Shown here in pieces: positions 5,710-14,156 of a DNA stretch of 47,499 nucleotides. The DNA is from Gemmatimonadales bacterium (GTDB lineage: Bacteria; Gemmatimonadota; Gemmatimonadetes; Gemmatimonadales; GWC2-71-9). Position 1 is the first letter of the stretch. The number at the start of each line of letters is the position of its first letter. The stretch covers positions 1 to 47,499 of the forward strand of contig JBFGLJ010000002.1 of NCBI GenBank assembly GCA_041576235.1. The letters are read 5' to 3'. The notes beneath the pieces were generated by a model. It was given only the letters and a program-made list of their open reading frames with translations. It had not been told where the DNA came from and did no database searches. Made by a program: the position numbers and the translations under genes.

Positions 5710-6332
5710 CGGGGCTCCGCATCGTCCGACACGAGCGCCAAGAGCGGCGTCACGATGCGCTCGGTCATGCCCCACACGATGTCGCCCCCCTCACCCTCCT
5801 TCGCCCCCTGCCCCTCGCGTCCCACCCGGTAGCCGGGGTACACCCGTTCCACCGAGCCGGCATGCATGGTCAACCGGACCCACACCTCCGGCCGCAGCAT
5901 GTCCGCCACCGGCGCCCATATCGCCGCCACGGCCTCGTGATTGAGCGCGATCGCCGGGCGGCTGTCCAGCGCGAATACGAACGGCCGCACCATGATCGGT
6001 GGGAGACGGGTCCGGCGCGTCGCCACGTCGTCGAGCGCGCCCAAGAGCTCGGTGGAGGCGAGGGGAATCCCCACCTCCTCGAGCGTCTCCCGAGCGGCCG
6101 TAGCCAGGAGACCGGCATCCCCCGGATCGCTCCGGCCCCCCGGAAACGACACGTGTCCCGACCACGGATCGCCGGCGCGCTCGGCACGCTTGATGAAGAG
6201 AATGGCATCGGGGTCGGGAGCGAACAGCACTGCAACCGCGGCTTGGATCAAGGCGTCGTCGTCTTCGGTGCGCGGGGCCCGCTCCCTGAGACGCCGGGCC
6301 AGGCGGGCCTGCAAGGGGGTCAGGGAGCTCAC
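5706..6332 (-). CDS. NUDIX hydrolase (CoA pyrophosphatase-like)
   Basis: Nudix box GGRSDPGDAGLLATAARETLEEVGI. GTG start at 6332 overlaps the upstream stop as GTGA. Its stop shares the CTAG palindrome with the gdhA stop. Confidence 0.8.
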   Translation of the reverse strand: MSSLTPLQARLARRLRERAPRTEDDDALIQAAVAVLFAPDPDAILFIKRAERAGDPWSGHVSFPGGRSDPGDAGLLATAARETLEEVGIPLASTELLGALDDVATRRTRLPPIMVRPFVFALDSRPAIALNHEAVAAIWAPVADMLRPEVWVRLTMHAGSVERVYPGYRVGREGQGAKEGEGGDIVWGMTERIVTPLLALVSDDAEPR

Positions 6333-7207
6333 GCCAGGTACCGGCTCATCCAATTCACCGTCCCGTCGATGGCCCGGTCGAGTTCGAGGGTCACCCCGCG
6401 AAACGGATGCACGGCGCCGAAGGTGTGCCCGGCACCCTCGATCCCAAGCAGCTGGATGCTCTCGCTTCTGCCCGCCCCCCCTGCCTCGGCGAGCGACTGC
6501 GCCTCCCGGGGATCCACCGTCTCGTCCTGGGTCCCGTGCACGATCAGCCACGGCGCCGCCACCTTGGCGGCCGCAGCACCGATATCCAGCTCGTCCCCCG
6601 TGCCCGACGCGGCGTTCTGTTCGAGATCATCCAAGACGTCGGCATAGAGAGGAAGCACCTGGCCGGTCCTGGCGTTCACCACGTCCAGCTTACCTTCGCT
6701 GCGCCATTGCTTGAGCTCCGATCGCGACCACCGATGGAACGTGCTCACGGCCGACCAGGTCACCAGCGCACCCAGCTCGGGGTCCGATGCCGCGCGCAGC
6801 ACCGATAGGCCGCCACCGCGCGAGTGTCCGAAGAGGCCGAGGCTGGTCGGCGCCGGGACGCCGAGTTCTCCGGCGCGCAGCGCCTCGATCACGGCATCCA
6901 AGTCCTGCAGATCCCCGGAGAAGGTCGCGTGGCCAAAGCGCTCCGGAAAGCTGAACTCGCCATCGTCATCGACCCCACTGCCACTCAGGTTGAACGACAC
7001 CGCCGTCATCCCCGCCTTGGCAAGCCGCTCGGCGAGGACCGGAAACATTCCCCAGTCCTTGAACCCCTTGAAGCCGTGCAACACCACCACCGCGGGCCGC
7101 GCCGGCTTCCCCTTCCCGGCCGCGGCGCGCGCGCCGGAGCGGACGTCGATGAGAATGGGCCCCAGGACGCCGGGGATCGAATGCTTGGTGAGCGAAGGAG
7201 TAGACAT
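6329..7207 (-). CDS. alpha/beta hydrolase (dienelactone hydrolase / S9-like)
   Basis: Nucleophile elbow GHSRGG, VVLHGFKG, and C-terminal GAGHTF. Start taken at the internal ATG 7207 (MSTPSLTK...); the upstream Arg/Gly-rich extension of the ORF is implausible. Confidence 0.8.
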   Translation of the reverse strand: MSTPSLTKHSIPGVLGPILIDVRSGARAAAGKGKPARPAVVVLHGFKGFKDWGMFPVLAERLAKAGMTAVSFNLSGSGVDDDGEFSFPERFGHATFSGDLQDLDAVIEALRAGELGVPAPTSLGLFGHSRGGGLSVLRAASDPELGALVTWSAVSTFHRWSRSELKQWRSEGKLDVVNARTGQVLPLYADVLDDLEQNAASGTGDELDIGAAAAKVAAPWLIVHGTQDETVDPREAQSLAEAGGAGRSESIQLLGIEGAGHTFGAVHPFRGVTLELDRAIDGTVNWMSRYLA

Positions 7208-7209
7208 GG

Positions 7210-7230
7210 GAGACGTGAGTCGTGAGTCGT
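7210..7230 (+). repeat. heptamer tract 1: GAGACGT GAGTCGT GAGTCGT
   Basis: 3 tandem 7-bp units in the 35-bp spacer between two minus-strand genes. Same unit as tracts at 9935, 10452 (inverted) and 10797. Confidence 0.8.
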
Positions 7231-7242
7231 TGGAAAGCTGGC

Positions 7243-8181
7243 TCAGCACACGGCCGGCTCGAGAATCGTAAGGGTGCCGGCGGTGGCGTCGAGTCGTGCC
7301 GGCACCCCCAGCGGCAGGGTCCACTGATCGTCGACATGGCCGATCGGGAATCCCGCCGCGACCGGGACTCCCAGCGGTCCGAAGGAGGTCTGCAGAATCT
7401 GGTCGATGCGCAACGCCGGAGCGTCGGAGGCCGGCTCGCGGAGGCCGAGCTGCCCCACGACGACGCCGCTCAACCCGTCGAACGCCCCTACCATGCGAAG
7501 ATGGGCCAGCATGCGATCGATCCGGTAGGCGTCCTCCGCCACGTCTTCGAGAAAGAGCAGCGCGCCGTCGAGGTCCGGAAAATAAGGGGTCCCCACCAGG
7601 CACTGGAGCAGCGAGAGGTTGCCGCCGAGAAGCGGTCCCGTGGCCACACCACTGCGGAGCGTGGTGGGACGGCAAGACGATGACAAATTCAACGGCACCG
7701 CCGGACTCGCCGGCTCGGTCGTGAGGCGCTCCAGGTGCTCGCGGCTGAAGGGCGTCGGCGCCTCCCGCGCGATGGGACCATGGAAGGTCACGACCGCGGT
7801 GATCCGCGTCACGGCGTTCAAGAGTGCTGTGATGTCAGAATACCCGACCAGCACCTTGGGGCTCCGGCCAAACGCATCGAAGTCTACGTGCTCGAGGATC
7901 CGGGTCACGCCGAACCCGCCTCTCAGGCACCAGATGCCGTCGACGGCCGGGTCCCGGATGGCGGCGTTCACATCGGCCAACCGCTCGTCATCCGTGCCAG
8001 CCAGGTACCCGTACTTCTTGCCGGCGTTGGGTCCCACTTCGGGGTGCCAACCCAGCGCGCGGCACGCCTCTTCCGCGCACGTGATATCGGTCGCGTCGCG
8101 CAGCACACCGGCCGGAGCCACTAACCTGATGCGGCTCCCTCGCTTAAGCCCCTTTGGACGGGTGAGTGTCTTTGACCCCAC
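7243..8181 (-). CDS. ldcA: LD-carboxypeptidase (peptidase S66, muramoyl-tetrapeptide carboxypeptidase)
   Basis: IRLVAPAG, GYLAGTDDERLADVNAA, GYSDITAL, conserved C-terminal GHV. Start set at in-frame GTG 8181 because the longer ORF overlaps the divergent gene; the start is uncertain. Confidence 0.78.
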   Translation of the reverse strand: MGSKTLTRPKGLKRGSRIRLVAPAGVLRDATDITCAEEACRALGWHPEVGPNAGKKYGYLAGTDDERLADVNAAIRDPAVDGIWCLRGGFGVTRILEHVDFDAFGRSPKVLVGYSDITALLNAVTRITAVVTFHGPIAREAPTPFSREHLERLTTEPASPAVPLNLSSSCRPTTLRSGVATGPLLGGNLSLLQCLVGTPYFPDLDGALLFLEDVAEDAYRIDRMLAHLRMVGAFDGLSGVVVGQLGLREPASDAPALRIDQILQTSFGPLGVPVAAGFPIGHVDDQWTLPLGVPARLDATAGTLTILEPAVC

Positions 8182-8276
8182 TGGACCCCCGCACTTACAT
8201 TTCCCGCGCTCAACCTTCTGCTCGGAGAATCGCGCTGCGCGCTTCCCATCCCACCTTGCTCGTCGCCGGCCGCGCC

Positions 8277-8792
8277 ATGGCCGAGGCGCGAGATGAATTG
8301 GTCCAGGAATGGGCCGACTGGCTGGGCGATCGGATGACCGCCTCCACCACAATACCCCGTTCCCTGGTCGAGCGGGAGCTTCGGTTGATCATCGACATCA
8401 TGGTGCAGCTGGTCGGTCCCTACCGTCGCGAAGCGAAGGCCGTGTGGGAGAAGGTCTGCGACCACTACGGACGAACGGCCGCCGCCCGCGGGCTCGCAGC
8501 GGGTGAAGTGGTCGAGGAGATCCAGTACCTCCGCGAACTCATGACCCGACGGCTGGCGCCCATCGTCGCCGCCATGCGCGCCCGGCAAAGCATGGCGATG
8601 TTGCTCCATCTCAACCGGGCGCTCGATCAGGGCATCGCCGCGGCCGTAGTGGGCTACACCGACGCGCTGGTGGCGACCATGTTCAGCCAGAACGGCGTCC
8701 CCGCCCCGGACACCGAGTTCGACGCGGCCGACGTCGAGAAACAGCTGGGCACCATCGAAGACCTCCTGGCCACGGTCATCGGGCCCAGCTGA
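8277..8792 (+). CDS. hypothetical all-helical cytoplasmic protein
   Basis: Internal ATG at 8277 (MAEARDELVQEW...), coding-like composition, no motif recognised. Confidence 0.5.
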   Translation: MAEARDELVQEWADWLGDRMTASTTIPRSLVERELRLIIDIMVQLVGPYRREAKAVWEKVCDHYGRTAAARGLAAGEVVEEIQYLRELMTRRLAPIVAAMRARQSMAMLLHLNRALDQGIAAAVVGYTDALVATMFSQNGVPAPDTEFDAADVEKQLGTIEDLLATVIGPS

Positions 8793-8808
8793 TCTCCTTT
8801 CCCATCCG

Positions 8809-9957
8809 GTGACGCTCGACCTCCTGCCCGCCATCCTGTGGCTGGCACCGTTCGTGGTGTTCATCCGCCTGGCCCGGCGGACGCCCCAGCTGACCGACGC
8901 CACACCGGCCACCGACGGGCTGGTGAGTGTGATCATTCCCGCCCGGAACGAAGCGCAGAATATCGAGACCGTAATCCGCTCGATCCTGGCCACGTCCTAC
9001 CATCCAATCGAAGTGCTGGTGGTGGACGACCGCTCGACCGACCGGACCGCGGCCATCGTCGACGCCCTGGCGAAAGAGGACCAGCGGGTGCGGCTCATTG
9101 CCGGCGAGCCCCTGCCCCAGGGCTGGTTCGGGAAGCCGTGGGCCTGTGTTCAAGGCTACCGGCAGGCCACCGGGAACCGCATCCTCTTCACCGATGCCGA
9201 CACCCGCCACCAGCCGGCGCTCCTCGGCTACGCGGTGGGCGCCGCCATGGAACACCAAGCCGATCTGCTCACCATCGCCCCGCGCCAGGAATGCGTCACG
9301 CTTTGGGAACGCCTGGTCATGCCCCAGATCGTCTTGATCTTGGGCTACCGGTATCACCCGCGGGTGGTGAACCGGGCCCGGCGGAGGCGAGGGGTCATCG
9401 CCAACGGACAATTCATCTTCGTCACCCGCGAGAGCTACGAGGCCATCGGGACCCACGCGGCGGTCAAGGGCGAGGTCGCCGAAGACCTGGCCTTGGCCCA
9501 GCGCTTCTTCGCCGCGGGACATAGGCTCTACCTGGCCTTCGCCGAGTCGCTCATGACCACCCGCATGTACCGGAGCCTGGGCGACCTGATCGAAGGCTGG
9601 GCCAAGAACGTGTTCCTGGGCGGCCGGCAATCCTTCCCGGATGAACCGCTGCGCCGGGCCATCCTGCCCCTCCTCTTGGCCCCCACCGCGCTGTTCTGGC
9701 TGATTCCGCCGGTTGTTCTGGCCCTGGGGCTGGCCGGGCTGCTCCCGGCCTGGACCCGTGCCGCGGCAGCGGCCACGCTCCTCTCGCTCGGGTTCTGGGG
9801 CATCGTGTCGTACGGGATGCAGATCCCCGTGCGCTACGCCATCGGCTATCCGCTGGGGGCGGCGATGGCGGCCTACATCTTCCTCCGGTCGCTGTGGCGG
9901 GGAGAGAAGGTGACGTGGCGGGGGAGAGAGTATGGAGTCGTGAGTCGTGAGTCGTGA
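8809..9957 (+). CDS. family 2 glycosyltransferase with C-terminal membrane domain
   Basis: VSVIIPARNE, VVDDRSTD, FTDADT motifs and multi-TM C-terminus. The last codons and the TGA stop are encoded by heptamer tract 2. Confidence 0.85.
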   Translation: MTLDLLPAILWLAPFVVFIRLARRTPQLTDATPATDGLVSVIIPARNEAQNIETVIRSILATSYHPIEVLVVDDRSTDRTAAIVDALAKEDQRVRLIAGEPLPQGWFGKPWACVQGYRQATGNRILFTDADTRHQPALLGYAVGAAMEHQADLLTIAPRQECVTLWERLVMPQIVLILGYRYHPRVVNRARRRRGVIANGQFIFVTRESYEAIGTHAAVKGEVAEDLALAQRFFAAGHRLYLAFAESLMTTRMYRSLGDLIEGWAKNVFLGGRQSFPDEPLRRAILPLLLAPTALFWLIPPVVLALGLAGLLPAWTRAAAAATLLSLGFWGIVSYGMQIPVRYAIGYPLGAAMAAYIFLRSLWRGEKVTWRGREYGVVSRES

Positions 9958-9962
9958 GTCGT
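9935..9962 (+). repeat. heptamer tract 2: (GAGTCGT)x4, perfect
   Basis: Four exact tandem 7-bp units; TGA occurs in all three forward frames across the tract. Confidence 0.9.
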
Positions 9963-10072
9963 TCACGAGACCAGTGTTGGTGCTAGAACGATTGCTCGCG
10001 CGTAGGTTTGCGTCGCCCAACTGATGCCCCGGTCGTAACCATCAGGATCTGGATCCTGGGCCGACGGCAAGG

Positions 10073-10432
10073 ATGGGAGACTTTAAGCAACTGAAGGCCT
10101 GGCGGAAGGCGCACCAGCTCGTCCTAGCTGTCTACCAGGCAACAGCTAAGTTCCCTCATGAGGAGCGGTATGGGCTCCGGGGTCAACTGCGTAGAGCGGC
10201 GGCCTCGGTCCCAGCCAATATCGCTGAAGGATGTGGCCGCCGTGGAGACGGAGACTTGTGCCGATTCTTAGGTATTGCCTTGGGATCTGCTGCAGAGCTA
10301 GAGTATCACTGTTACCTGGCCCGAGTTTTGGGGCTTCTCACCGGAGATGTTGCACAGCGATTGATGGACGACTCCATTGAGGTTCAGAAGATGTTGGCCT
10401 CGTTTATCCGGTTTCTGAGGCGAGCTAGATGA
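10073..10432 (+). CDS. four-helix-bundle protein (23S rRNA intervening-sequence protein / Avd family)
   Basis: Family signature RGQLRRAAASVPANIAEGCGRR...FLGIALGSAAELEYHCYLA, 119 aa, lower GC than flanks. Confidence 0.9.
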   Translation: MGDFKQLKAWRKAHQLVLAVYQATAKFPHEERYGLRGQLRRAAASVPANIAEGCGRRGDGDLCRFLGIALGSAAELEYHCYLARVLGLLTGDVAQRLMDDSIEVQKMLASFIRFLRRAR

Positions 10433-10451
10433 TTGCAATGCCCTTGAATGA

Positions 10452-10535
10452 AGTCTTAAGTCTCTAGTCTGTAGTCTCATGTCTCAGGTCTCACGACTAG
10501 TCCTCACGTCTCACGACTCATGTCTCAGGACTCCA
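10452..10535 (-). repeat. heptamer tract 3: about 12 degenerate 7-bp units in inverse orientation (AGTCTCA / CGACTCA type)
   Basis: 7-bp periodicity read directly: agtctta agtctct agtctgt agtctca tgtctca ggtctca cgactag tcctcac gtctcac gactcat gtctcag gactcca. This is the reverse complement of the GAGTCGT/GAGACNT units. Confidence 0.8.
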
Positions 10536-10539
10536 CTCC

Positions 10540-10794
10540 ATGATGAAACTCTCCCTCACCCGTGACATGGTCGACGCGCTGGATGACGCCGTCGACAAGC
10601 CCGACTGGCTCATCGCCGAGGTGGAGCGGATGAAGACCTCCGGCGAGCCCTACGAGCTGACCTTGATACCCGAGCAGAGCACGGCGCTCGAGGAGCTGTG
10701 CACCATGAACATCCGCTTCGACGCCGAGGGCAATGTGAGGGCCGAGCACATGGCGCTCGAGGAATTGTCGAATCTGGTGATGGAGAATTACTAG
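10540..10794 (+). CDS. small acidic hypothetical protein (84 aa)
   Basis: ORF bracketed by inverted heptamer tracts 3 and 4. No recognisable motif; composition is coding-like. Confidence 0.5.
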   Translation: MMKLSLTRDMVDALDDAVDKPDWLIAEVERMKTSGEPYELTLIPEQSTALEELCTMNIRFDAEGNVRAEHMALEELSNLVMENY

Positions 10795-10796
10795 AA

Positions 10797-10845
10797 GACT
10801 TGAGACTTGAGTCGTGAGTCGAGAGTCTGCGGTCATCAGTCGTCG
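10797..10845 (+). repeat. heptamer tract 4: GACTTGA GACTTGA GTCGTGA GTCGAGA GTCTGCG GTCATCA GTCGTCG
   Basis: 7 tandem 7-bp units starting 3 nt after the stop of the 84-aa ORF. Confidence 0.75.
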
Positions 10846-11125
10846 GGCGGCGGTCTGCAGTTCCCGGTTTGAGCCTCTTGGCACTTGGCAACACCTCGTA
10901 TACGAAGTGACTCCTCGGGCCCACTTCCCGTCCCGTTCACCCACCCGCATTAGGGTGCGGTTTCCGCAGTCATCCTCCCCGCAGGCTACTTGCAAGGGCA
11001 ATCCCTAAACGTGATGGCGGGGGGGCGTATGAATGCAGGCTGGCCGGCCGTTCTGGCTGATATATGGCAGGACTGGCAGGATCGGCTCATTTTTCTGCAG
11101 TCTAGTACTCGTTAGGCGGCGTCAC

Positions 11126-11653
11126 GTGAAGCGCGATATCTACCCATTACTCCCGGTCATTGCGGCAACCCTCGCCCTCTTCTGGATCGTACCTGGCGTA
11201 CCCTTCGCTCATTTGGACGATCCCAGCTACTGGGGAGTGATAGGCTATGGATTGACACTCGTGGTGGTCGTCACCCGCGTGCTCGGGCGCCGATCAGATG
11301 CGTCCGAACGCCGGTGGTTGATCGGCTTCCTGGTGGGGATGCCGTTGATATACATAGCGGCTTGGCTGCGCTTTGGTGGCGCTGCTTCCTGGTTGGCGAT
11401 CGAGTTCGTGGGGCTTGTCCTCTTCTCTGGCATCGCATGGCTGTCAGTTCGCCGATCGGTGTGGTTCTTACCGTCAGGCATCGCTTTGCATGCGTTGTGG
11501 GACGCCGGACATTACGGAATAGCGGAATTCATCCCAAACTGGTACGTCGTGGGCTGTATCGTTGCAGACGTCGCCCTAGGCCTATACATCGCCGGTCGCC
11601 TGTCCGGACTCGCGTTGGTTGCGACTCGAAGCTCCCCGCGGGACGCCGTCTAA
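11126..11653 (+). CDS. cassette ORF: integral membrane protein, unknown function
   Basis: GTG at 11126 lies 9 nt after the GTTAGGC box. About 5 predicted TM helices. The TAA stop lies inside the GTCTAAC box. Confidence 0.6.
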   Translation: MKRDIYPLLPVIAATLALFWIVPGVPFAHLDDPSYWGVIGYGLTLVVVVTRVLGRRSDASERRWLIGFLVGMPLIYIAAWLRFGGAASWLAIEFVGLVLFSGIAWLSVRRSVWFLPSGIALHALWDAGHYGIAEFIPNWYVVGCIVADVALGLYIAGRLSGLALVATRSSPRDAV

Positions 11654-11808
11654 CCAGCAAATGCACCTGACGGGGCGCGCACGCCGGTAAGGAATACAGC
11701 GTTTGTGCGGCGGCCTATGATAGTGCACGTTAAAGTGACTGATACCCGGCCTGCGGCCGGTCTCGCCAACGGGTGGGTCGCCCGCAGGTGATTTGCAGGC
11801 CGTTAGGC
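11648..11808 (+). other. attC-like recombination site A (161 bp)
   Basis: The 5' arm GTCTAAC-CA-GCAAAT-G-CACCTG pairs with the 3' arm CAGGTG-ATTTGC-AGGCC-GTTAGGC. There is one bulged G. Confidence 0.7.
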
Positions 11809-11880
11809 AGCAGCGCTACGGTTCAGAGGACCAACGCGAGGGCCGGCAGGGTCCAGATTTGGGAGGTGTCCGCGACAGCA

Positions 11881-12333
11881 ATGGATGGCCAAATTAGGAC
11901 AGCGCAGGAGATACGTAGAACCTCCGACAACAAATTGGCAGGTATTGTCCGGTTGCTACTGGCCGTGCTTTTTCTGATGACTGGTGCTATGAAGCTTGTG
12001 GTGCCAATGCTTGCCGAGGCCTGGTCCGGACAACTGCTCGCTGCGGACCTACCGCTTTCCACGTTAAGTCGCTGGACCGTTCCGTTTCTCGAGATTTTCC
12101 TAGGTATCGCTCTTGCTATCGGCGTATTTGTTCGCCCGGCGGTTATTGTGGTCATAGGCGTTATGATCGTCGCGACGTACGTTCATCTAGTCGTTGACGA
12201 TCCGACGCTGTTCCCGCTGCAGCCCACCGAGCCGATCATTCCGCTCATCGTGATTGTGATGGGTGTCTACCTTCTATGGCGCGGGGGAGGGGCTTGGAGT
12301 GGGGATCTGAGAGCGACGGGGACTGCTGTCTAA
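11881..12333 (+). CDS. cassette ORF: DoxX-family membrane protein
   Basis: GGGAGG SD-like sequence 13 nt upstream of ATG 11881. LAGIVRLLLAVLFLMTGAMKL DoxX-like N-terminus, 4 TM helices. The TAA stop lies inside the GTCTAAC box. Confidence 0.65.
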   Translation: MDGQIRTAQEIRRTSDNKLAGIVRLLLAVLFLMTGAMKLVVPMLAEAWSGQLLAADLPLSTLSRWTVPFLEIFLGIALAIGVFVRPAVIVVIGVMIVATYVHLVVDDPTLFPLQPTEPIIPLIVIVMGVYLLWRGGGAWSGDLRATGTAV

Positions 12334-12466
12334 CCGGCGTTTGCACCTGACGCGGGCGCCGCTCGATGTACGGCCTTAGATCTTCTTGAGGCGAGTTCCG
12401 TGGCCGGGCCGCTCCCGCAGACGGGCGCGGACGCTGCCGCGCAGGTGAAACGCAGATCCGTTAGGC
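12328..12466 (+). other. attC-like recombination site B (139 bp)
   Basis: The 5' arm GTCTAAC-CG-GCGTTT-G-CACCTG pairs with the 3' arm CAGGTG-AAACGC-AGATCC-GTTAGGC. Same architecture and bulge as site A, with compensatory changes. Confidence 0.7.
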
Positions 12467-12489
12467 GCCAACTTTAACAGGATCGTGCC

Positions 12490-13050
12490 GTGTGGTTGGT
12501 CTGGACTGTAACGGCGGCTTCAGCAGTAGTGGCTACCTCCTGCGTAATCCTACTTCGGGACGACTGGAGGGTGGCACCGAGGGGCTGGCAGTGCCTTGCC
12601 GGCTCCGGCGTGGCACTCGCGCTGGGGGGGCTCGGCTTCATCATCCGTTTCTGGCAGCCTCTTCCGGGCCCTTACATCGCAAACGAACTCTATCCATTGG
12701 GCCCATATGTGAACGCGTGGGCGGTGTCATTCGGTTTCATGTGGCTCGCCTACGGTCTGGCGTTCGTGACGTTGGCGCTGCGAGGCCAGCGGTCTTTCAA
12801 GATCTGGCTGGCGATGATTGCGACCTGGATTCTGGCGTGGCTCCCTCACGCCATCATCGTGCTCGGCTTTCTGACGGCGGGTGAGAACGAGCGAAGCCTG
12901 GAGCTTTACCGCGGCTGGGCAGCGGAGTGGCGCGGCCTACTTGCCCTCTCGGTTAGCGGCCTGATTCTCGTCGGGCACCTTGGGCTGAGCCTAGCGGGGT
13001 TCGTTCTCACGGGTCGAGCACTGCTGCGAGATAACAAGACTCCTGCCTAA
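12490..13050 (+). CDS. cassette ORF: integral membrane protein, unknown function
   Basis: GTG start 24 nt after the GTTAGGC box. About 5-6 TM helices. The TAA stop lies inside the GCCTAAC box (13045-13051). Confidence 0.6.
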   Translation: MWLVWTVTAASAVVATSCVILLRDDWRVAPRGWQCLAGSGVALALGGLGFIIRFWQPLPGPYIANELYPLGPYVNAWAVSFGFMWLAYGLAFVTLALRGQRSFKIWLAMIATWILAWLPHAIIVLGFLTAGENERSLELYRGWAAEWRGLLALSVSGLILVGHLGLSLAGFVLTGRALLRDNKTPA

Positions 13051-13174
13051 CAGGCCGTCAGTCCCTCGACGACGGTGCACATGAAGGCGTTCGCTCTTCC
13101 ACCAATGGCCTCGTACGGCACGATCTATCGTTGCTGCGTTGGAAACTTCCCTCACACACAGGAGGGTCCGAGCA

Positions 13175-13348
13175 ATGGCCCGGTCTTCCGTCGGACTCGA
13201 AGCGGTGTTGTCGGTCATAACATTGGCGGCCTGTGGAGCGGAGCAGGCTGAGGAATCGCGGGCGACGGGCGAGCTTGCGGCTCCTGCCGGCAACCAAGGA
13301 ACTTCGGTGCAACGGATACGAGCCTACACTGTGCTATGCCGGCCATGA
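13175..13348 (+). CDS. small putative lipoprotein (57 aa)
   Basis: AGGAGG at 13160-13165, 9 nt before ATG 13175. Signal peptide plus lipobox MARSSVGLEAVLSVITLAAC. Confidence 0.45.
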   Translation: MARSSVGLEAVLSVITLAACGAEQAEESRATGELAAPAGNQGTSVQRIRAYTVLCRP

Positions 13349-13357
13349 TTCGTTTGG

Positions 13358-13388
13358 CGCCCGCAGCAGAATAACAGATCCGTTAGGC
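13358..13388 (+). other. attC-like 3' half-site (L'-R'): GCGCCCGCAGCAGAATAACAGATCC-GTTAGGC
   Basis: Aligns with the 3' arms of sites A and B (..CGC(C)CGCAG....AG(G/A)(C/T)CC-GTTAGGC). I could not find a convincing 5' partner. Confidence 0.45.
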
Positions 13389-13420
13389 TGCGTGGAATGT
13401 GACAGCCACGGCCGTTCGCG

Positions 13421-13849
13421 TTGCTCGTGCACGCTCTGACACCGAGCGTCGAACTGAAGGTGGCGCCCAAGGCGTTTCGATTCTCCTGCCGCGGCCGGGT
13501 CGAGTCAATCGCCCCGGTCCTCTACCTCACCGGGTCAGGCGCCAACCAGCGCGTTTCCGCTGTCGGTGATTCTGCTGCGCCACCCGGACCCTACACGAGA
13601 GTTGCGTTCCTCCAGGCTTCCGCAGAGCTTGAGCTTCCCATTTCGCGCACCGATGCACTAGAAGCTTTCCTCCGCTACGCACTCGCCAAGGTTTTCAAGC
13701 GCACCTTCCTTGTGCGCCCCACGGTCTTCGTCAGTGGCATCGAATCGATCGCGGGTACCTTCGGTGGGACCGAGGCTCGTGTCCTCGAGGATGCCCTCCT
13801 GTCTGTTGGCGCGCATAGGGTCGTGTTCTTCCCGTTGCGCGCCACCTAA
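13421..13849 (+). CDS. cassette ORF: hypothetical soluble protein (142 aa)
   Basis: TTG start 33 nt after the GTTAGGC box. The stop TAA sits in ACCTAAT, immediately followed by ACTC-GTTAGGT. No motif recognised. Confidence 0.5.
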   Translation: MLVHALTPSVELKVAPKAFRFSCRGRVESIAPVLYLTGSGANQRVSAVGDSAAPPGPYTRVAFLQASAELELPISRTDALEAFLRYALAKVFKRTFLVRPTVFVSGIESIAGTFGGTEARVLEDALLSVGAHRVVFFPLRAT

Positions 13850-14019
13850 TACTCGTTAGGTCCACCGGACCCACTCTTCAACAGAGTGATGCTGCAATCC
13901 GCATGGCGGGCCTCCATCGCGTCGCTCGGCCTCTCAAGCGTAGGCTCCTCGCCAGCATGAGGGTCTTCCCGAGCTCCGCGCAGTCCGATCCCCAGCGGGG
14001 TTCCGCTGCCGATCCGGGT

Positions 14020-14127
14020 CCCTAACCGCCGTCTCCGGTGGACGGGCCTTGCAGCGGTCAGCAGAAATCGTTGATTTCGCTAAGGGTGTACTACGATGGC
14101 CCGCCACCGACATGGAACCCGTTAGGC
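14020..14127 (+). other. attC-like recombination site E (108 bp)
   Basis: The 5' arm CCCTAAC-CGCCGTCTC-CGGTGG-A-CGGGCC pairs with the 3' arm GGCCCG-CCACCG-ACATGGAACCC-GTTAGGC. One bulged base; a different sequence family from A and B. Confidence 0.6.
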
Positions 14128-14156
14128 CAGACAGGAGTCTCACGTGACGAACCCGA

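Follow-up and report, generated by a model that had tools for sequence, protein, structure and literature searches.

Tandem-heptamer hairpins at gene junctions of a Gemmatimonadales bacterium, one of them enclosing a four-helix-bundle gene

Results

Heptamer tracts and genes at the locus

The window, a stretch of 47,499 nucleotides from a Gemmatimonadales genome (hereafter G000), contains four tracts built from the heptamer GAGTCGT. All four were found at the coordinates given by the original prediction and lie far above chance, as (GAGTCGT)2 with at most two mismatches occurs nine times in the window against 0.46 expected from shuffled sequences (maximum 3). Tract 1 (7210-7230, + strand) is a solo array of three units that lies in a 35-nt gap, with the stop codon of an LD-carboxypeptidase gene (7243-8121, - strand) on one side and the start codon of an alpha/beta-hydrolase gene (6329-7207, - strand) on the other. 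On the sense (-) strand it reads ACGACTC and directly precedes the start codon; the orthologous junction of the congener G002 holds a hairpin of about 170 bp made from other units (GTAGGGAG / CCTACTA).

Tract 2 (9935-9962, + strand; four perfect units) overlaps the end of a host gene for a GT2 glycosyltransferase (8809-9957, + strand; Pfam GT2, E 6e-27), whose final codons and TGA stop (9955-9957) fall inside the tract, and its units put TGA into all three forward frames. The encoded C-terminus reads ...GREYGVVSRES in G000, ...GREYGGTGDTG in the congeners G002 and G004, with one residue different in G003, and ...YRSP or ...YSAE in outgroups. After a leader of 110 nt (9963-10072, + strand) comes a four-helix-bundle gene (10073-10432, + strand) of 119 aa that belongs to PF05635, the 23S rRNA IVS protein family (E 2.5e-36, match over residues 5-109). 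It is followed by tract 3 (10452-10538, - orientation), which on the + strand shows about 12 degenerate units of ACGACTC type and ends one base ahead of the ATG of an 84-aa acidic gene (10540-10794, + strand) with native codon usage; the product of the latter matches no Pfam family. Two nucleotides past the stop codon of this gene begins tract 4 (10796-10845, + strand), composed of AGACTTG twice, then GAGTCGT, GAGTCGA and GAGTCTG, then degenerate sequence. The + array predicted here is present, yet the seven units ascribed to it were a generous count because the sequence past 10830, up to 10845, is degenerate, and about five clear units remain. No clear 3' partner of tract 4 was seen downstream. 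Tracts 1 and 4 are solo arms at junctions neighbouring the cassette. About 260 nt further downstream a lower-GC island and an integron cassette array (11.1-14.1 kb) begin.

An exact-protein look-up with the 84-aa protein returned one independent contig, 99.4% identical, in which tract 3 has the same number of units and two substitutions; the four-helix-bundle protein has no exact match on record. A scan for a sigma-70 promoter consensus found none in the leader, a scan of 9800-11100 for intrinsic terminators gave no sites and no T runs after the arms, and an Rfam search of 6500-12000 (E up to 1) gave no match.

The four-helix-bundle cassette

Tracts 2 and 3 are inverted around the four-helix-bundle gene, as had been noticed from the sequence, and folding predicts the long-range stem proposed for them, in the MFE structure as well as in the centroid (z -3.85). 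In the MFE fold tract 2 pairs with the proximal part of tract 3 (10513-10538), the predicted duplex energy is -51.8 kcal/mol, and the gene lies in a loop of 490 nt. It is the only PF05635 gene of G000; its codon usage is atypical, and the R..S...N..E motif, described in PMC3936711, is retained. When the cassette interior (9963-10451) was compared with G000 by BLAST, no other copy was found, only chance 13-16-mers. The best matches to the protein share 54-58% identity and mostly have other arm units; GAGTCGT-armed four-helix-bundle proteins of other phyla were considered as its closest relatives and are not. An assignment as the accessory variability determinant (Avd) of a DGR was likewise discarded: the neighbours are the GT2 and 84-aa genes, and the only repeats are the heptamer arms.

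The vicinity of the integron array, with its first GTTAGGC core at 11111, could suggest reading the tracts as degenerate attC sites and both small genes as the first cassettes of that array. This reading has next to no credibility and was rejected because the core sites are missing: 9900-11100 contains no GTTRRRY / RYYYAAC pair. Moreover, genera that have no tracts keep the 84-aa gene in synteny with the GT2 gene, and the tract family also occupies ordinary housekeeping junctions (PPase/ychF, ABC transporter).

A genome-wide family of junction hairpins

GAGTCGT-type tracts number about 100 in G000 (99-102), against 0-9 for 24 heptamers of the same composition, with one outlier at 21. With gene calls from a crude codon-usage caller, which underlie all genome-wide statistics given here, 95 of 102 tract midpoints fall outside called genes and 7 within them, at a coding fraction of 92.5% (p about 1e-97 for the intergenic bias), and about 75 junctions carry a tract. 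A TRF census of arrays in the genome found one superfamily to be dominant. All 25 close pairs have the polarity (+)(-), i.e. 5'-(GAGTCGT)n-loop-(ACGACTC)n-3'; the reverse order, which tracts 3 and 4 display, occurs in none of them. The standard element consists of (GAGTCGT)n, a loop of 3-83 nt and (ACGACTC)n, and it typically spans the entire intergenic gap. Fold energies of the 25 pairs range from -24 to -77 kcal/mol, their loops share no common sequence, and the arms have no fixed head sequence. On the sense strand, tracts that read GAGTCGT follow stop codons (48:15) and those that read ACGACTC precede start codons (26:5), the 26 falling between -25 and +40 nt from the start. At an ABC ATPase/permease junction a single hairpin of 151 bp provides the TGA stop together with the ATG start (as ATGACTC). 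Tracts at contig ends amounted to five against 4.5 expected; this lack of enrichment gives no sign of an assembly-break artefact.

The tracts are arms of tandem-heptamer hairpins at gene junctions throughout G000. The suggestion of a dispersed, REP-like repeat holds as well, given the number of tracts and their strict orientation. Within this genome the supposed link of the tracts to four-helix-bundle genes fails, one such gene standing against about 75 tract-bearing junctions.

The hairpins resemble the REP/BIME elements of enterobacteria and pseudomonads, which are dispersed imperfect intergenic palindromes, often right after stop codons, species-specific in sequence and present in hundreds of copies. 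A REP, in contrast, is one palindrome, about 35 bp long, that has a conserved GTAG head and is mobilised by RAYT transposases, whereas the G000 elements are tandem arrays of variable length. Cyanobacterial STRR repeats are another intergenic heptamer repeat family. Such families as such are already described, with genome-specific units: TAACTGA in Beggiatoaceae, Cyanobacteria and Bacteroidetes (PMC4679880), GGGAATC in Xanthomonas and GGGGAYT in Nostoc (PMC4692102). The G000 family shares with them a single 7-nt unit massively over-represented as short tandem arrays, a nearly exclusive intergenic location, often a few nucleotides from start codons, and a patchy distribution across phyla. It differs in that its arrays form inverted pairs of fixed polarity (for TAACTGA, PMC4679880 counts 169 direct sets and only one inverted set), in its visible link to one gene family, PF05635, and in the replacement of the unit at orthologous junctions of congeners. 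The exact string GAGTCGTGAGTCGT had no match in a literature search.

Alternatively, the tracts might be passive simple-sequence repeats that arise by replication slippage with a preference for 7-nt units and are tolerated only between genes, having neither a function nor a link to four-helix-bundle genes. Heptamers are the commonest class of long simple-sequence repeats in prokaryotes (Mrazek 2007, as quoted in PMC4679880), the units drift, copy numbers differ among species, and arrays persist in one relative (G026) that has no PF05635 gene. We regard this explanation as improbable. Slippage leaves unexplained the invariant inverted pairing of a G-rich 5' arm with a C-rich 3' arm (25/25 pairs; 54 arms in the wider family described below), the complementarity of arms that is kept while units diverge, and the dominance of one unit over a whole genome; inverted pairs at the frequency of independent placement, as passive repeats would have them, are contradicted here.

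History of the cassette and of the repeat units

In the outgroup genera the GT2 and 84-aa genes are adjacent, with a spacer of 60-75 nt and no cassette. Among the congeners, G001 retains a truncated 3' end of the four-helix-bundle gene with diverged heptamer arms, G002 and G004 align with a cassette remnant of about 60 nt, and the intergenic sequence of G003 is the same. By comparison of these genomes, the genus ancestor acquired the cassette as an insertion between the GT2 and 84-aa genes; the G000 species has kept it intact, and in the four sister species deletion has reduced it to remnants. Orthologs of the 84-aa gene were found in 17 of 60 relatives, and it stands beside the GT2 gene in at least eight genomes of four genera, mostly without tracts; judged by this synteny, it is an older host gene outside the repeat element. 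Thus, of the two genes originally regarded as bracketed modules, the four-helix-bundle cassette is indeed absent or decayed in relatives, while the 84-aa gene mostly occurs without tracts; tracts 3 and 4 do have the inverted geometry around it, but in an order that no close pair of the genome shows, and this host gene does not count as a bracketed module.

Species share some of the array positions, but the units are genome-specific, the dominant one being GAGTCGT in G000 and GCTATYG in its congeners. The PPase/ychF junction has a hairpin in 5/5 congeners, made of GAGTCGT in G000 and of GCTATCG/GCTAACG in the others. Over 160 syntenic junctions arrays coincide above chance (p about 2e-5) with different units, one G000 junction preserves a relic of the old unit beside the new array, and one G002 junction holds several repeat families stacked together.

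Such a distribution raises the question of mobility: hairpins and cassette could be mobile elements with the inverted arrays as their termini, the gene-less hairpins being non-autonomous, MITE-like copies and targeting junctions or existing hairpins. The hairpin at the ABC ATPase/permease junction is found only in G000, GAGTCGT occupies about 75 junctions there and is nearly missing from the congeners, the stacked families of G002 would fit repeated insertion, insertion of the cassette maps to a defined node of the tree, and exact (GAGTCGT)4 arrays, often as (+)(-) pairs, are present across many phyla. Against this stand the lack of a visible target-site duplication, the variable arm length, the lack of an associated transposase, the single-copy cassette interior and the hairpin loops without common sequence; cassettes also decay in place and show no clean excision. 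Arrays occur in G002 too at five of six G000 hairpin junctions examined, a pattern that in-place turnover of units fits as well as re-invasion does. On balance, mobility seems a rather unlikely account.

PF05635 genes in relatives and the comparison with rRNA intervening sequences

When bracketing was scored as an array score of at least 30 (the 99th percentile of control genes being 33), 28 of 30 PF05635 loci in relatives proved to lie inside inverted arrays of 7 or 8 nt, each with its own unit, as against about 1% of control genes, a difference that slippage also leaves unexplained. The units vary from locus to locus and the paired arms are always complementary; the same bracketing occurs at loci in genomes of other phyla. 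In the 54 arms of the wider family the 5' arms are G-rich (42% G, 17% C). Stop trinucleotides occur three or more times in only 19 of 54 5' arms, and the three-frame stop seen in tract 2 is hence not a general rule.

The IVS-like topology that had been recognised at the locus is accordingly the rule in the order, and the cassette is built like an rRNA intervening sequence, although outside rRNA. The 23S rRNA IVSs of Coxiella burnetii and Leptospira (Ralph & McClelland 1993; Warrier et al. 2016, PMC4990558) likewise carry a PF05635 (S23p) ORF in the loop of a stem, have terminal inverted repeats forming a stem of about 28 bp and tandem heptamers in or beside the 5' arm, directly ahead of the ORF, and lose the ORF by deletion in some lineages. 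The Coxiella IVS has a 28-bp stem; GACAGAT heptamers repeat in tandem ahead of its S23p ORF, and its RNase III cuts have been mapped (PMC4990558). Unlike these IVSs, the G000 cassette lies between protein-coding genes and not in helix 45 or 25, both of its arms consist wholly of tandem heptamers, the G000 arms provide the stop codon of a flanking gene and, at certain junctions, a start codon too, about 100 gene-less arrays of the same unit accompany it, and RNase III, which carries out IVS excision, is undetected in the lineage.

With the anatomy of the Coxiella IVS in mind, the stem may be viewed as an RNase III processing site, where a cut would split the cistrons on either side from each other and either set the four-helix-bundle mRNA free or destroy it. 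In G000, a PF14622 search, tblastn with E. coli rnc and a signature-motif scan found no RNase III; PF00636 is absent from 31/31 genomes of the order, whereas 8/14 control genomes match it, and an rnc protein search matched 1/61 genomes, on what is apparently a contaminant contig. As canonical RNase III is absent from G000 and 59/60 relatives, the stem cannot work exactly as it does in rRNA, and the processing at the tracts that had been suggested, if ascribed to RNase III, is very improbable because the enzyme is absent.

Another candidate role is that PF05635 proteins are trans-acting, unit-specific partners of the hairpins: while resident, a gene would maintain arrays with its own unit at the junctions or make them spread, and its loss would lead to decay or replacement of the family. 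G000 has an intact GAGTCGT-armed gene and 177 GAGTCGT matches against three of GCTATCG, while G001-G004, where the GAGTCGT-armed gene exists only as remnants, have 1-2 GAGTCGT and 83-123 GCTATYG matches, and a GCTATYG-armed four-helix-bundle gene is present in G001, G002 and G004. The arms of all three four-helix-bundle genes of G002 match repeat families abundant in that genome, and in most genomes checked the dominant unit matches the arms of a resident four-helix-bundle gene. Nevertheless, G026 has arrays without a PF05635 gene, G003 has no visible GCTATYG-armed gene, the repeat families of G002 outnumber its four-helix-bundle genes, and proteins that share an arm unit are not each other's closest relatives. 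Across 61 relatives the GAGTCGT count shows no correlation with the number of PF05635 copies. A match of units would also be expected if the gene simply lands in existing hairpins, and a partnership of this kind is a speculative possibility, to which we assign a low likelihood.

Discussion

From these results we consider the following the best explanation and a reasonably probable one: the hairpins are elements of gene junctions, one of which holds a looped-out four-helix-bundle cassette from the genus ancestor, with arms that couple the flanking genes and units that turn over. The two arms would pair in the transcript or in single-stranded DNA and thereby loop the insert out. Since TGA recurs every 7 nt, the G-rich 5' arm would terminate the upstream reading frame whatever its frame, and the C-rich 3' arm would adjoin, and sometimes provide, the start codon of the downstream gene; with the stop in one arm and the start at the other, both would meet at the base of one stem. 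A ribosome terminating in the 5' arm could then melt the stem and expose the downstream start, so that the insert would be nearly neutral for the operon, in analogy to the IVS stem that keeps an rRNA helix continuous. In the family as a whole, junction positions are partly kept between species while the genome-specific unit changes in waves.

Translational coupling cannot apply to hairpins between divergent (3/25) or convergent (6/25) genes. When the 25 hairpins were folded as sense and as antisense strand to test for RNA-level G-U wobble, the energies showed no consistent asymmetry, and thus a role at the RNA level is not favoured over one at the DNA level.

The anatomy found here brings together two old puzzles, the surplus of heptamer tandem repeats between bacterial genes and the role of the large '23S rRNA IVS protein' family. 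Given the apparent absence of RNase III across the order, IVS-like stems can persist without their supposed processing enzyme. G000 is an unusually clean case, with one four-helix-bundle gene and one dominant unit beside sister species in which the gene has decayed and the unit has been replaced, and it makes a specific hypothesis testable, be it a partnership of protein and repeat or an insertion between cistrons that insulates itself.

Heptamer hairpins at gene junctions

The four GAGTCGT-type arrays were all found in the window where they had been placed: tract 1 at 7210-7230 (GAGACGT GAGTCGT GAGTCGT), tract 2 at 9935-9962 (four perfect GAGTCGT units), tract 3 at 10452-10535 (about 12 degenerate reverse-complement units) and tract 4 at 10796-10830 (about five recognisable units, fading by 10845). 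Two-unit matches (≤2 mismatches) numbered 9 in the window, where dinucleotide-preserving shuffles gave an expectation of 0.46. The window is contig C2 of a Gemmatimonadota assembly of 2.68 Mb, 237 contigs and 66% GC. The option of a dispersed repeat family was borne out by a scan of this genome (G000) with a 21-mer and ≤4 mismatches, which gave 102 GAGTCGT tracts, compared with 0-9 for each of 24 control heptamers of the same composition, with one outlier at 21. Only 7 of the 102 tract midpoints fell inside called genes, against a 92.5% coding genome (p ~1e-97), and most tracts reached into the interval from -25 to +40 nt around a gene end; gene calls for these statistics came from a codon-usage caller written for this analysis.

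Close pairs numbered 25 (50 tracts, gaps of 3-83 nt), and the order 5'-(GAGTCGT)n-loop-(ACGACTC)n-3', that is (+)(-), was seen in all 25, the opposite order in none. Their predicted RNA fold energies ranged from -24 to -77 kcal/mol, and no common sequence was found among the 25 loops. On the sense strand, GAGTCGT followed stop codons at 48:15 and ACGACTC preceded start codons at 26:5, the hairpins lying between co-directional (16), convergent (6) or divergent (3) genes.

Tracts 2 and 3 also form a (+)(-) pair of this kind, around a 490-nt loop that holds the PF05635 four-helix-bundle gene (10073-10432, E 2.5e-36), the three together forming a cassette, and the stop TGA (9955-9957) of the GT2 glycosyltransferase gene (8809-9957) lies within tract 2. 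The stem predicted around the four-helix-bundle gene held: the duplex amounts to -51.8 kcal/mol and closes the cassette in both MFE and centroid folds of 9920-10545 (z -3.85), as well as in a fold of the longer stretch 9920-10930. Tracts 3 and 4 could also pair (-45.9 kcal/mol), with a fold no better than that of shuffled sequence (z 0.16), and their (-)(+) order is without precedent among the 25 close pairs. Searches of the cassette region for Rfam families, a sigma-70 promoter and an intrinsic terminator returned no match. An attC identity for the tracts was rejected, attC core sites not being present in them. An island of lower GC (55-62%, 11100-14130), with GTTAGGC at 11111, begins just past tract 4, and the heptamer cassette lies at its left edge.

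History of the cassette

The acidic 84-aa ORF at 10540-10794, which has no Pfam family, had been proposed as a second bracketed module. Its orthologs occur in 17 of 60 relatives, and in outgroup genera (G032, G020 and G036) it directly follows the GT2 gene across a 60-75-nt spacer with no cassette between. At the same junction the cassette is intact in G000; among its four sister species (G001-G004) it has decayed, G001 retaining the 3'-terminal third of the four-helix-bundle ORF, interrupted by a stop codon and flanked by diverged arrays (GAGTCGG TAGTCGG AAGTCGT; GACTTNN x7), and G002-G004 a homologous remnant of ~60 nt plus two units ahead of the ATG. This distribution, from cassette-free outgroups through the intact and partial copies to the remnants, indicates a single insertion of the cassette, in the common ancestor of the genus; it decays through deletion in place. 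The 84-aa ORF is a host gene older than the cassette, not a module.

In four genera or more, the gene for this acidic protein comes directly after the GT2 gene, and the protein may act together with the glycosyltransferase. In another genus, a different heptamer array (ATTGAAA ATTGCAA ATTGAAA ATTGGCA) lies ~55 nt upstream of its ortholog (L127, G019).

Unit turnover between species

Units were counted as 21-mer matches with ≤3 mismatches, both strands summed. GAGTCGT x3 gave 177 matches in G000 and 1, 2, 1 and 2 in G001-G004, GCTATCG x3 gave 3 in G000 and 94, 110, 123 and 83 in G001-G004, so that the counts are reciprocal across the five species. Other relatives rich in GAGTCGT are G021 (270 matches), G027 (52) and G037 (56). 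The PPase|ychF junction carries a hairpin in 5/5 species, of GAGTCGT type in G000 and of GCTATCG/GCTAACG elsewhere. At the ABC ATPase|permease junction a 151-bp hairpin is found in G000 only, its arms supplying the stop codon (TGA) for the gene before it and the start codon (ATG, as ATGACTC) for the gene after it. Along 400 kb of G002, arrays were present at 15 of 160 syntenic junctions in G002 and 9 of 160 in G000; six array-bearing junctions overlapped, four of them clearly (Fisher p ~2e-5), and in these four the units differ. At one junction G000 still has two GCTATYG units as a relic beside its GAGTCGT array, and G002 in places has several families at one junction; its arrays fall into at least five superfamilies, those of G000 into essentially one. 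In an independent contig with 99.4% identity to the window, tracts 3 and 4 have as many units as here, so the arrays are stable at strain level.

A 34-kb stretch of G002 (C1:32000-66000, L215-L217) has side-by-side 7- or 8-nt families (CTCCTCA, GCTATYG, GGCGGTTC, CCGCCTTC, GTCGGTAA) in nearly all intergenic gaps and looks like a hotspot of hairpin-family accumulation. A backwards-read control unit, TGCTGAG x3, was abundant in G036 (294 matches) and G005 (34), so a dominant heptamer of their own is also found in other genera of this family.

Armed four-helix-bundle genes

In the top-scoring PF05635 locus of each of about 30 related genomes, arrays were sought on both sides. TRF detected a 7- or 8-nt tandem array ahead of almost all these genes, at a distance of 30-170 nt, with a reverse-complement array downstream, and units that vary by locus (AGCCATC, GGGTGTA, GAGGACT, TTGGCTA, TAGGGGC, CGGCGGAT, GCGGGGAA and others). 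Local alignment of the left flank with the reverse-complemented right flank scored ≥30 in 28 of 30 PF05635 loci, the 95th and 99th percentiles for 200 similar-sized control genes being 25 and 33; the design of arms around a gene also recurs in most of a separate set of 30 loci, taken from 24 genomes of other phyla. Because the arms remain complementary though the units differ, covariation favours a stem. Of the two strands, the G-rich one always formed the 5' arm (42% G, 17% C; 54 cassette arms, L138-L242); a hairpin reads alike on either strand of the DNA, so the polarity belongs to the element itself. Orthologous cassettes 3' of the same upstream gene in G003 (L235), G002 (L237) and G004 (L241) have arms that diverged in concert (GGGAGTR vs GTAGGAN), and the G004 one has an additional outer array, GGGGTGTA x4.

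The closest published anatomy is the Coxiella 23S rRNA intervening sequence, a 28-bp stem with tandem GACAGAT heptamers before the start codon of S23p, a PF05635-family protein, and mapped RNase III cuts (PMC4990558). Heptamer repeat families (PMC4679880, PMC4692102) and four-helix-bundle genes wedged into operons (PMC3936711) are already published; we found in the literature neither a gene-in-heptamer-hairpin architecture outside rRNA nor genome-specific unit turnover at conserved junctions.

The arms of these genes match resident repeats. The sole four-helix-bundle gene of G000 has arms of the dominant unit, the three of G002 have arms of GCTATCG, GTAGGAN and GGCGGTTC, each abundant there, and G021, G027 and G037 each have one with GAGTCGT-like arms. 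GAGTCGT-armed genes also occur in Chloroflexia, Thermomicrobiales, Gemmatimonadales and a deltaproteobacterial MAG, all with (GAGTCGT)4 arrays. Several findings speak against a strict dependence of family on gene: G026 has GCTATCG arrays and no PF05635 gene, no GCTATYG-armed gene was found in G003 (assembly 89% complete), families outnumber four-helix-bundle genes in G002, and proteins with a common arm unit are not mutual closest relatives. The match would come out equal if genes landed in pre-existing hairpins or if arms were homogenised with the array pool of the genome. Inside G000, which has a single PF05635 gene, the tract family is therefore not linked to four-helix-bundle genes.

Possible role of the hairpins

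By the rRNA precedent, cleavage of the stem by RNase III would be expected. The enzyme was not detected in G000 by the PF14622 profile, by tblastn with the E. coli rnc query or by a signature-motif scan; PF00636 matched 0/31 genomes of the order and 8/14 control genomes. A protein search with rnc matched one of 61 genomes, at G050:C294 (53% identical to E. coli RNase III), probably a contaminant contig (genome contamination 3%). Judged from these assemblies, canonical RNase III appears absent from the whole order (G000 and 60 relatives). The original observation is confirmed; of its interpretation, the stem that encloses the four-helix-bundle gene stands, as does the dispersed family, the 84-aa module does not, and processing of RNase III type is probably wrong.

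A structural role free of cleavage is therefore favoured. The present evidence favours neither an RNA-level nor a DNA-level role, and a structural stop/start model leaves the convergent and divergent hairpins unexplained. In such a model the stem would loop out the insert, so that the stop codon of the gene before it and the start codon of the gene after it come to lie at the foot of the stem; the 5' arm would terminate translation arriving in whichever frame, and the next start codon would mark the end of the 3' arm. This inferred role fits the anatomy of the co-directional junctions.
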